DNA of 64,000 nucleotides from a virus, in the IMG/VR virus record IMGVR_UViG_3300049592_000018, positions 1,149-65,148 of that record; one strand, 5' to 3'. The notes beneath the pieces are model-generated. The model ran no database searches. It had not been told where the DNA came from and saw only the letters and a program-made list of their open reading frames with translations. The position numbers and the translations under genes are program-made. This document shows positions 30,015-30,569 of the stretch, piece by piece; the stretch's first letter is position 1; every line of letters starts with the position of its first letter.

Positions 30015-30043
30015 TTGCAAGATTACTCACTACCTAGTAGTTT
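30015..30043 (+). promoter_or_regulatory. Promoter upstream of the second RNA cluster
   Basis: TTGCAA-17 nt-TAGTTT just before the first hairpin at about 30051. Confidence 0.55.
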
Positions 30044-30129
30044 TAATCACGTGAGGTTAACCACCGACGGCGCACCTCACGGAGGCGGATCGTAGCTCAC
30101 AGCATCGATCCCTACGATCCGCCTCACAT

Positions 30130-30221
30130 GGGCTCGTAGCTCAACCGGCAGAGCGCGACGGCGATCGAAGTGGCCACCGAGATTCAGCCGCGGGTTGGAG
30201 GTTCAAGTCCTCCCGAGCCCA
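30130..30221 (+). ncRNA. tRNA-like RNA with an enlarged (24-nt) anticodon loop
   Basis: Acceptor GGGCTCG/CGAGCCC plus A, D arm GCTC/GAGC, T arm GGAGG-TTCAAGT-CCTCC; CGGC/GCCG stem closes 24 nt instead of 7. Confidence 0.7.
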
Positions 30222-30272
30222 CTCCACGGGCCTGATCAGCTCGAGGATGCAACCGGCGTCATGAACCGGTTG

Positions 30273-30347
30273 AGTGGTTAGGTGTATGGTGCATGGGGAA
30301 AGCCCGTTGGCGAGTACCGGGGGTGGGTTCGAATCCCACGACCACGC
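30273..30347 (+). ncRNA. tRNA-like RNA lacking a canonical anticodon arm
   Basis: T arm GTGGG-TTCGAAT-CCCAC; acceptor-like GTGGTT/GACCAC; the middle has only a short GGG/CCC hairpin and a variable-arm-like stem. Confidence 0.5.
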
Positions 30348-30569
30348 GTTGATCCGCCGGGCCCGACCCGAAAACGTCGAGCGACGACACCGGCGGATCA
30401 CCTTAATTTTCACCTGAGAGGGCCCACGTGATACTACTAGATGTACTGGCCGTTGGCCTGTTCGGCATCTCGCTGATCTGCTACGCGCGCGGTCAACGAG
30501 GCAACGCGATCCTCTGTGCCGCGGGCGCGGTCTTCTTTGCGTTCATGGCGGTCGCCGCAACGCGCTAGT

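Follow-up and report, generated by a model that had tools for sequence, protein, structure and literature searches.

In most discussions, phage tRNA genes figure only as decoders or as substitutes for cleaved host tRNAs. The tRNA shape can also act as a processing signal, as it does in mitochondrial polycistrons, in the mascRNA of MALAT1, in the tRNA-miRNA units of gammaherpesvirus 68 and in the RNase P-matured C4 and CI RNAs of phages P1 and P4. The nearest annotated kin of the locus described here are the tRNA-like stable RNAs of phage T5, whose record (NC_005859) lists in one place promoter P13a, RNAIV and RNA2, a "tRNA-like stable RNA with unknown functions", and in another tRNA-His, RNAIII, RNAI and RNA1. 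Passages of PMC4201824 describe Y RNAs of the YrlA type, found in actinobacteria and some phages, as RNAs that do not decode but have an acceptor stem and D and T arms like those of a tRNA; the YrlA of M. smegmatis is cleaved by RNase P and has CCA added, and YrlA adjoins the gene for Ro60 (TROVE), its own ends forming the stem that binds Ro. A literature search, with supplementary tables outside its scope, found no paper that describes anticodon-less tRNA-like genes of actinophages.

The locus lies in the complete 65-kb genome (G000) of an uncultivated soil actinophage. Positions 30015-30410 of the window, by which we mean the whole 64,000-nt stretch that was analysed, are non-coding and hold a promoter-like site, four perfect hairpins and two tRNA-shaped units. 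A DNA similarity search with positions 29900-30600 gave no match among 50,697 phage records, and tblastn with the portal protein recovered only distant actinophage relatives (875 records, all below 60% identity, the best at ~28%), so that the phage has no cultured relative. Closer relatives are visible as proteins P0003-P0010, which are 67-78% identical to the PF07098 protein, whereas the protein encoded immediately upstream of the cassette (29584-30009) found no homolog except itself.

A promoter-led non-coding cassette

The ORFs that overlap the cassette lack the GC3 bias typical of real genes, and the whole would be expressed as a single promoter-driven non-coding transcript of ~370-390 nt. 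Its promoter-like site (30015..30043, plus strand) is a pattern match made up of TTGCAA at 30015-20, a 17-nt gap and TAGTTT at 30038-43. A generic sigma-70 scan of the window did not list it, because TAGTTT matches TATAAT at only three of six positions. The pattern of the clade, TTGC-N19-TANNNT, has six matches in the window where 2.43 are expected (at least six were seen in 3 of 100 shuffles); it is also present at the leaderless promoters at 28052 and 30570, and it occupies the orthologous position in the related loci L003, L130 and L133. An earlier note, made from the letters alone, had proposed this promoter, hairpins of 14, 7 and 11 bp and two tRNA-like units, and every one of these features is present where it had placed them, the hairpins being perfectly paired throughout.

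The transcript would open with two adjoining hairpins on the plus strand. Hairpin 1 (30050-57/30074-81) has 8 bp and a conserved loop motif, CCGACGGCGC, which is kept together with its position in L002, L003, L130 and L133; the stem pairs differ on both sides among three variants, including those of L003 and L133, and the changes are compensatory. This 8-bp hairpin was absent from the list in the earlier note. Hairpin 2 (30082-95/30112-25) has 14 bp, 100% complementary, around a 16-nt loop; its 5' arm and the start of its loop repeat the first 13 nt of unit 1 at 92% identity, and 4 nt separate the end of the hairpin from the RNase P site predicted for that unit. The pair folds with z = -6.79, and none of 200 shuffles folded as well. 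Between the two units, a spacer RNA (30222..30271, plus strand) forms two hairpins (-18.6 kcal/mol, z -1.71), of which the second, a 7-bp CAACCGG/CCGGTTG stem at 30250-30272, reaches the 5' edge of unit 2; the spacer also contains CAACCGGC, a copy of the unit 1 D-loop. Hairpin 3 (30350-60/30390-400, within a feature spanning 30350..30411 on the plus strand) begins 2 nt past the discriminator of unit 2 and has 11 bp, 100% complementary, a 29-nt loop with an inner stem, and the tail CCTTAATTTTCA; its fold has z = -4.53, again unequalled in 200 shuffles. It might serve as a terminator or cap the 5' end of the downstream mRNA; the terminator scan did not list it because its loop exceeds 8 nt. Short internal repeats of tRNA pieces are abundant across the cassette.

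A 16-nt inverted repeat brackets these elements, with its left copy (CTAGTAGT[TTTA]ATCACGTG) at 30034..30053 and its right copy at 30425-30440; these are its two matches in the window, where 100 shuffles lead one to expect none. There is overlap with the -10 box at the left half and, at the right copy, with the GTG start of a small ORF. As the end of a mobile element the repeat was rejected, the viral contigs giving only single matches and none paired, and a minus-strand promoter at the right copy was set aside for want of a -35 element. The small ORF (30428..30568, plus strand) encodes a hydrophobic peptide of 46 aa and is preceded by GAGAGGG; its GC content by codon position (0.66/0.47/0.74) resembles that of the phage's real genes, and a comparison with PHROG gave no match. 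Beyond it, at 30570..30760 on the same strand, lie the next promoter (TTGCTC, 17 nt, TAGGAT), the palindrome TCACATTATTGTGA and a leaderless ORF for a Cys-rich product of 51 aa. This stretch is the conserved anchor of the locus, with DNA ~76% identical to positions 4809-4896 of L003 and 4396-4488 of L005.

Other classes of RNA were also considered. No Rfam family besides tRNA gave anything meaningful in the cassette at E up to 10. ARAGORN found no tmRNA in the window, and the acceptor strands of each unit lie within at most 92 nt. Five 12-mers of the cassette recur or have a complement elsewhere in the window, against 3.86 expected, and these counts lend no support to a role as a base-pairing sRNA.

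tRNA shapes without a decoding arm

Unit 1 (30130..30221, plus strand) has perfect acceptor (7/7), D (4/4) and T (5/5) stems and scores 45.7 bits against Rfam RF00005, passing the gathering threshold of 29. The stacking of acceptor on T stem that characterizes a canonical tRNA, with its TTCRANY-type T-loop, is thus present in full, but a 5-bp anticodon stem with a 7-nt loop and a usable anticodon is not: the anticodon region spans 35 nt, as compared with 15 in the RF00005 model, and in the best cloverleaf it forms an elongated helix of ~10 bp closed by a 14-nt loop. The perfect arms seen in the earlier note therefore stand, while what it took for a 24-nt anticodon loop pairs further. Outside the anticodon arm, unit 1 is nearly identical to cellular genes of the tRNA-Met(CAT) type, for example that in L191; among 118 cellular genes that carry its acceptor, 80 are of this type, some of them near-identical outside the anticodon arm. 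Derivation from a tRNA-Lys(CTT) minus its anticodon loop, which L006 had suggested, was dropped on that count. Folded without constraints, unit 1 forms a rod of -41.2 kcal/mol, compared with -36.7 kcal/mol for the cloverleaf, and the anticodon region folded alone does no better than shuffles (z +0.85).

Unit 2 (from 30272 or 30273 to 30347, plus strand) is degenerate. Its T arm is intact (5/5), its D arm is weak, and two short hairpins take the position of the anticodon arm. The acceptor pairs at 6/7, with an A1.G72 mismatch and an extra G-1:C73 pair. No match to RF00005 was obtained at E up to 10, and the tRNA-Sec model of Rfam gave a sub-threshold 22.4 bits (gathering 47, E 0.058); folded alone, the unit has z -0.91, and 31 of 200 shuffles fold equally well. 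The T arm and the missing anticodon arm are thus as the earlier note had them, while the acceptor it described as kept is kept at 6/7 in a unit that falls below the tRNA threshold. The type of D arm and the A1.G72 and G-1:C73 combination are common to a 105-nt mimic in L321. A further element at 14539-14680, which the earlier note had grouped with these units as tRNA-like, does have an acceptor of 7/7 and a perfect T arm, but it has no match to the Rfam tRNA model at E up to 10. In G001, the closest relative, there is a tRNA-Met cassette whose tRNA is 74% identical, but no counterpart of the 14539-14680 element.

The same slot in related phages

In L003, L130 and L133, which have 70% portal identity, the promoter and hairpin 1 are orthologous to those described here and there is no tRNA-like unit. 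More distant relatives hold tRNA-Gly and tRNA-Glu at the slot: in L126, L134 and L309 the order is promoter, long hairpin, tRNA-Gly(tcc), an 80-nt spacer, tRNA-Glu(ctc), RBS and the conserved small ORF, while in L005 ARAGORN finds 25 tRNAs in the locus and the record as a whole has 31 matches to RF00005. In L307 and L308 this tRNA-Glu is exactly replaced by a 72-nt anticodon-less unit, in which a single hairpin accompanies a T arm and an acceptor paired at 7/7, within spacer and RBS flanks that are ~90% identical; tRNA and mimic are interchanged at one slot of the clade. The unit of L308 carries an insertion of ~150 nt. Units that ARAGORN does not detect also lie ~20-30 nt upstream of the RBS in L304, L312, L313, L317 and L321, the one in L304 standing between two GGATCYT-containing repeats in an otherwise L003-like leader, and another directly follows a promoter in L137. 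Across 35 loci of the clade (219 kb), some of them near-duplicates, a scanner that requires good stems found eight units with a 7/7 acceptor on the gene strand and one on the other strand, where 20 shuffles gave a mean of 1.05 and a maximum of 3.

Neither unit of the present cassette has an ortholog in 4 + 12 + 29 related loci. Blastn of the cassette against all collected loci, and its comparison with 49 tRNAs of relatives and L006, returned generic tRNA likeness only, and the perfect stems of the units could simply reflect a recent origin. According to the earlier note, normal tRNAs in relatives combined with mutations scattered across all arms would speak against selected mimics; normal tRNAs do stand at the slot in L126, L134, L309 and L005, but the changes are not scattered over the arms.

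Possible roles and comparison with known systems

We tentatively favour, at somewhat less than even chances, a reading in which the two units derive from tRNAs and serve as processing modules on which RNase P and RNase Z act, with cleavage predicted from general knowledge of these enzymes. In this reading the units no longer decode but retain the stack of acceptor and T arm, to which unit 1 adds the complete elbow, and these are the parts that host tRNA-processing enzymes recognise. Each unit would gain its 5' end from RNase P and its 3' end, past the discriminator, from RNase Z or trimming exonucleases. The predicted products are an ~84-nt RNA made of hairpins 1 and 2, unit 1, an ~50-nt spacer RNA with a terminal hairpin, unit 2, and the mRNA of the 46-aa membrane peptide, with a new 5' end capped by hairpin 3. 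The tRNA shape would serve as punctuation and the hairpins as end protection. Among the functions that the earlier note had listed, punctuation offers the best anatomical fit, because hairpins abut every cleavage site, each of these sites being a prediction. We count against this reading that L003, L130 and L133 manage with no tRNA-like unit here, that the tRNA-piece repeats in the cassette are as expected of rearranged debris, and that unit 1 prefers a rod and the stand-alone folds of unit 2 and of the unit 1 anticodon region are no better than those of shuffles.

Rather unlikely, in our estimate, is that the units and the fragments near them are decaying or rearranged former tRNA genes, functionless and tolerated in a leader. 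Such a history would agree with the tRNA-piece copies scattered through the cassette, with the failure of unit 2 against RF00005, with the lack of any ortholog of the units and with the presence of real tRNAs at the slot in L126, L134 and L309 (two each) and in L005; since they are absent from the closest relatives, tRNAs come and go at this locus. It accords poorly with the absence of mismatches from the six stems of unit 1 and from the four hairpins, with an anticodon arm in unit 1 that retains no remnant of a 7-nt loop while the other 57 nt are canonical, with the gene-strand enrichment of similar units in the clade and with the fact that a compact genome of 65 kb has kept ~400 nt of non-coding DNA led by a promoter. 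The earlier note's contention that these are not random pseudogenes is upheld by the perfect stems, the kept elbow and acceptor, the rebuilt anticodon region and the gene-strand mimics in relatives, one of which replaces tRNA-Glu. At the opposite extreme, it is hardly credible that unit 1 is a working class II tRNA-Ser(CGA), or a tRNA with a short intron. The unit does pass the Rfam tRNA model, and ARAGORN labels it tRNA-Ser(cga) at 30130-30222, where an undetermined or pseudo call had been anticipated; the label is based, however, on a drawing in which the D stem is mismatched, the anticodon stem contains G.G and G.U, and the extra arm has A.G mismatches. Unlike a class II tRNA-Ser, the unit has neither a well-paired long variable arm nor a regular anticodon stem-loop, and its D arm is of class I, not class II, type; its discriminator is A, whereas tRNA-Ser in bacteria normally has G73. 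In intron mode ARAGORN repeats its call with no intron, and we know of no splicing of ~20-nt tRNA introns in bacteria.

It is quite improbable that the tRNA-like block is a small mobile or recombinational insertion that lands in phage leaders, its shape a by-product of origin. Direct copies of GATCCGCC at 30116 and 30351 flank the block formed by units 1 and 2, four of the seven copies in the window falling within the cassette, the inverted repeat brackets the cassette as a whole, and both the repeat-flanked unit of L304 and the ~150-nt insertion in L308 would suit such a process. Against it, chance alone would be expected to produce each 8-nt repeat within 700 nt, no viral contig contains the bracket repeat a second time, its 42 single matches being at chance level, and no transposase or homing-endonuclease gene is found near the cassette. 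A doubtful but less remote proposal is that the processed units are decoys or sponges for a host factor that reads the tRNA body or acceptor end and not the anticodon, for example an acceptor-end-modifying or tail-cutting defence toxin, the CCA-adding enzyme or RNase P itself. In this genome, three units keep acceptor and elbow and discard the anticodon, and MenT-type nucleotidyltransferase toxins act on tRNA acceptor ends in mycobacteria. Tail-cutting defence nucleases are represented by Cas12a3 (PMC12851939), and phage tRNAs are known to counter tRNA-targeting defences (PMC10264068, PMC11555353). The units are, however, only two in the cassette, one of them degenerate, no defence or partner gene is linked to them, and a profile search of G000 found no Ro60/TROVE, CCA-adding or RNA-ligase gene. 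The decoys for anticodon nucleases that the earlier note had suggested are unlikely, because both units are left with nothing resembling an anticodon loop of 7 nt that PrrC, RloC, AriB or VapC could recognise, and these classical nucleases are excluded as targets. With the same low probability, the anticodon-less units of this clade, together with similar genes on many IMG/VR contigs, might be dedicated phage effector RNAs, released by RNase P and RNase Z to occupy a host protein such as an acceptor-end defence toxin or a tRNA-tail nuclease; tRNA and mimic would then be interchangeable at the slot because both supply bait, and the lengthened arm of unit 1, with its self-complementary GUGGCCAC loop, could pair with itself. 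Taken as a whole, the interpretation given in the earlier note is partly supported.

One slot in a transcription unit thus carries, depending on the relative, either a real tRNA or a tRNA shape that does not decode, which argues that the shape itself is useful. Its simplest use, and the one proposed in the processing reading, would be to signal where the transcript is cut, so that several end-protected RNAs could be obtained from one promoter. Should this be confirmed, it would explain the recurrence in phages of tRNA-like "stable RNAs of unknown function", as the T5 annotation has it, would provide a natural counterpart of engineered tRNA-spaced RNA arrays, and would warn annotators that ARAGORN calls such as the tRNA-Ser(cga) made here are not decoders.

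The known systems differ in how far they match this arrangement. The canonical phage tRNAs and anticodon-loop variants that evade tRNA nucleases (PMC10264068) share origin and genome place with the tRNAs of the relatives studied here, but they still decode, whereas the actinophage units have no anticodon loop; the text of that paper contains none of the terms pseudo, insertion, non-canonical, enlarged, decoy and loop size. YrlA RNAs are set apart by their Ro-binding ends, the actinophage units having free acceptor ends and a closed, lengthened anticodon arm in a complete genome that gives no match to PF05731 (TROVE), while control genomes respond. In the punctuation systems, the tRNA shape serves RNase P and RNase Z in defining the ends of neighbouring RNAs with no part in decoding, as we propose here; none of them comes from an actinophage, and cleavage has been demonstrated there and is predicted in the present cassette. 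Phage T5 belongs to another lineage, infects E. coli and carries its RNAs within a region of 25 tRNAs, which its annotation records as detected stable RNAs, whereas the actinophage units are known from sequence alone. When annotation and gene order are compared, T5 presents the same promoter-led runs in which small stable RNAs, tRNA-like RNAs (RNA1, RNA2 and RNA3) and tRNAs stand side by side.

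Promoter, hairpins and setting of the cassette

The source record in IMG/VR is a complete genome of 65,148 bp with direct terminal repeats, of which the window covers bases 1,149–65,148; the GC content of the window ranges from 55 to 68%, and the phage genes show a strong GC3 bias when GC is counted by codon position. Cultured relatives identified through the portal, at about 28% identity, are exclusively actinophages, with 496 Mycobacterium, 197 Gordonia and 130 Microbacterium records among the 875 that matched. Several promoters in the window stand 6–7 nt ahead of an ATG, a spacing like that of actinobacterial leaderless mRNAs.

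The cassette (about 30015–30410) is flanked by the large terminase gene (phrog_2, 26282–27865) and the portal gene (phrog_776, 31690–33309), and every element that an earlier note had listed here, namely a promoter followed by hairpins alternating with two tRNA-shaped units, is present. The putative promoter, TTGCAA-17-TAGTTT, was not among the sites returned by a generic sigma-70 scan; it fits the pattern TTGC-N19-TANNNT, also found at leaderless promoters 28052 and 30570, which has six matches in the window against 2.43 expected, a number reached in 3 of 100 shuffles. The stems of 14 bp (hairpin 2, 30082–30125), 11 bp (hairpin 3, 30350–30400) and 7 bp contain no mismatch, and an additional 8-bp hairpin (hairpin 1, 30050–30081) was identified. 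For the cassette RNA as a whole the folding energy is −161.5 kcal/mol, with a z of −3.30 that none of 100 shuffles equalled. The hairpins account for this signal, the 5′ pair having z −6.79 and the 3′ hairpin z −4.53; the contribution of the tRNA-like units is smaller, at −2.63 (unit 1) and −0.91 (unit 2). Open reading frames across the cassette have a flat GC by codon position (e.g. 0.60/0.59/0.68), unlike the terminase gene (0.64/0.47/0.79), and the stretch is thus non-coding.

A 16-nt inverted repeat (30034–30053 and 30425–30440; two matches in the window against none expected), the left copy of which carries a 4-nt insert, encloses the cassette, with one copy at the −10 box and the other at the GTG start of a small ORF, and could be an operator pair, the scar of a rearrangement or a means of pairing the RNA ends. 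The cores of both large hairpins (30084–30091, 30116–30123, 30351–30358 and 30392–30399) are formed by GATCCGCC and its complement, and the leader hairpin of the relative L126 employs a related sequence, GATCCGCGG. A palindrome, TCACATTA(A/T)TGTGA, lies between the −35 and −10 boxes of the leaderless promoters (28052–28080 and 30570–30598) and recurs in the relative L003 (about 4790–4830); it looks like the operator of a phage regulon and is absent from the cassette promoter.

Structure of the tRNA-shaped units

Unit 1 (30130–30221) scores 45.7 bits on the Rfam tRNA model (gathering threshold 29), with acceptor (7/7), D (4/4) and T (5/5) stems free of mismatches and an anticodon arm that the alignment extends to 35 nt, against 15 in the model. 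A search for its acceptor and T-arm ends in one genome per prokaryotic species found 118 genes, comprising 80 of tRNA-Met(CAT) type, 15 Ile(GAT), 11 Val, 5 Lys, 5 Arg, one called Tyr and one uncalled. Some of these genes (L191, L219, L288 and L296) are nearly letter-identical to unit 1 except in the anticodon arm, and we therefore regard it as a class I tRNA body, canonical throughout, whose centre is foreign. If the cloverleaf is imposed, this centre pairs into a helix of about 10 bp, interrupted by two small bulges and capped by a 14-nt loop, which includes the self-complementary GUGGCCAC (−36.7 kcal/mol); folded without constraint, unit 1 gives a rod at −41.2 kcal/mol.

Unit 2 (30272–30347) is matched solely by the tRNA-Sec model of Rfam, at 22.4 bits against a gathering threshold of 47 (E 0.058). 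Its T arm is perfect, its acceptor pairs at 6/7 positions with an A1.G72 mismatch adjoining a G-1:C73 pair, its D arm is weak (GUGU/GCAU), and two short hairpins replace the anticodon and variable regions. For a third element that the earlier note had counted as tRNA-like (14539–14680, minus strand), the 7/7 acceptor and perfect T arm hold, but Rfam returns no tRNA match at E up to 10. This element and unit 2 have a D arm of type GGTGTAG..GG..CAC in common with non-decoding units of two other loci, L317 (1605–1708) and L321 (2298–2402), the latter also sharing the mismatch and adjoining pair of unit 2; these likenesses may reflect descent from one ancestral tRNA or recognition through the same feature. 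The single regular tRNA of the phage (CAT anticodon, 15086–15162, minus strand) sits in a promoter-plus-hairpin cassette conserved, at 74% identity and with paired changes, in the 66-kb relative (G001 32446–32520; L180 1247–1321), where no tRNA-like element follows the CAT tRNA.

The same slot in relatives and tRNA shapes in other phages

Portal-based and PF07098-based searches supplied the relatives' loci (4, 12 and 29). Four relatives at 70% identity (L002, L003, L130 and L133) carry orthologues of the promoter and hairpin 1; the loop motif CCGAC(G/A)GCGC is retained, and the stem changes on both sides among three variants. Past hairpin 1 the structured leader of these loci is a different one and includes no tRNA-like unit. 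At the slot of the cassette, three relatives at about 60% identity (L126, L134 and L309) present the order promoter, long hairpin, tRNA-Gly(tcc), 80-nt spacer, tRNA-Glu(ctc), RBS and a conserved Cys-rich ORF, and L005 has 25 tRNAs at the slot. L307 and L308 are about 90% identical to L126 across the spacer and RBS region. The unit that they have in place of tRNA-Glu is 72 nt long, pairs at 7/7 acceptor positions, has a T arm and a single 6-bp hairpin, and shows no sequence likeness to that tRNA. In L308 (about 40–200), some 150 inserted nucleotides, ending in the promoter-like TATAGTAT, interrupt the unit seen in L307 (2603–2675). L304 (470–620) combines a leader like that of L003 (4260–4310) with roughly 100 additional nucleotides that bear a tRNA-like unit and are flanked by two GGATCYT-containing repeats; the arrangement looks like an insertion that duplicated its target. 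L136 carries a class I tRNA (861–936, Rfam 47.7 bits) whose anticodon loop, TTGGAGG, is unassigned by ARAGORN, and a second stretch with a T arm at about 1140–1225.

Units negative in ARAGORN lie about 20–30 nt 5′ of an RBS in L304 (two units), L312 (59 nt), L313 (with an expanded D loop), L317 (three units) and L321 (105 nt), and immediately 3′ of a promoter in L137. A control scan for a T arm with a 7/7 acceptor outside ARAGORN calls (35 loci, several of them near-duplicates; 219 kb), which by design demands good stems, gave eight matches on the gene strand against one on the opposite strand, 20 dinucleotide shuffles giving a mean of 1.05 and a maximum of 3. A deliberately narrow pattern (one class I D-arm sequence, 38–56 nt, then a T loop) matched at least 119 IMG/VR contigs. 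Among the matches listed, the acceptor is 7/7 in 84 of 119, 38 resemble tRNA-Ile(UAU) and form a group marked by a long extra arm, and the other 81 have a rebuilt centre; 43 of these 81 receive no call in the default mode of ARAGORN, and a further tRNA lies within 1 kb of only 26. It follows that tRNA shapes lacking an anticodon are a common feature of uncultivated phages. The UAU (Ile) tRNA recurs in L007, L009, L011, L019, L021, L023, L025 and at least about 30 more IMG/VR loci; many copies encode CCA, the loop of the extra arm resembles a second anticodon loop, and another tRNA lies within 1 kb in 31 of the 38 loci among the matches listed. Eight tRNA-shaped genes (L010, L075, L096, L026, L101, L106, L047 and L113) share, with compensatory changes, the centre frame ...AAGGN...NCCTTGATG, which may be a pseudoknot replacing the anticodon arm.

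Proposed processing punctuation and competing readings

RNase P, RNase Z, the CCA-adding enzyme and T-loop modifiers all recognise the acceptor/T-arm stack. Among the roles proposed in the earlier note, processing punctuation is the best supported, because this stack is what survives in every unit, real tRNAs and mimics interchange at one slot, and a perfect hairpin borders every predicted cut in the window; we hold it tentatively, at a little under even chances. A transcript of the cassette would, on cleavage, give a leader RNA (about 84 nt) with the conserved hairpin 1, units 1 and 2, a spacer RNA (about 50 nt) and the mRNA of a 46-aa hydrophobic peptide with hairpin 3 at its start, the bordering hairpins protecting the new RNA ends. 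The role of anticodon-nuclease decoy, also proposed there, is disfavoured since no anticodon loop is left in the units.

Relics of tRNA genes are unlikely but deserve serious weight: tRNAs are clearly gained and lost at the locus, unit 2 has degenerated, copies of tRNA pieces occur inside the cassette and orthologues of the units were not found in the related loci, so that perfect stems may only reflect youth. A decoy of the tRNA body or acceptor end agrees with what the units retain, yet no target linked to the cassette was found and the phage genome lacks Ro60, CCA-adding and RNA-ligase genes, which makes it rather improbable. We also give little credence to insertion debris or a mobile block; the two units lie between direct copies of GATCCGCC, four of whose seven copies in the window fall in the cassette, the 16-nt inverted repeat encloses the cassette and the arrangement in L304 is insertion-like, but the bracketing repeat does not recur as a pair in viral contigs. 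That unit 1 is a functional tRNA is hardly credible and was rejected: ARAGORN, expected in the earlier note to call it undetermined or pseudo, labels it tRNA-Ser(cga), but the structure drawn is mismatched in three arms and intron mode brings no improvement.

The comparative evidence for a slot alternating between tRNAs and mimics is useful. The cassette belongs with tRNA-shaped processing signals or with the tRNA-like stable RNAs of phages. In the record of phage T5, RNA1 and RNA2 are annotated as ‘tRNA-like stable RNA with unknown functions’ and RNA3 as ‘putative tRNA-like RNA’, all three surrounded by promoters, tRNAs and further stable RNAs.
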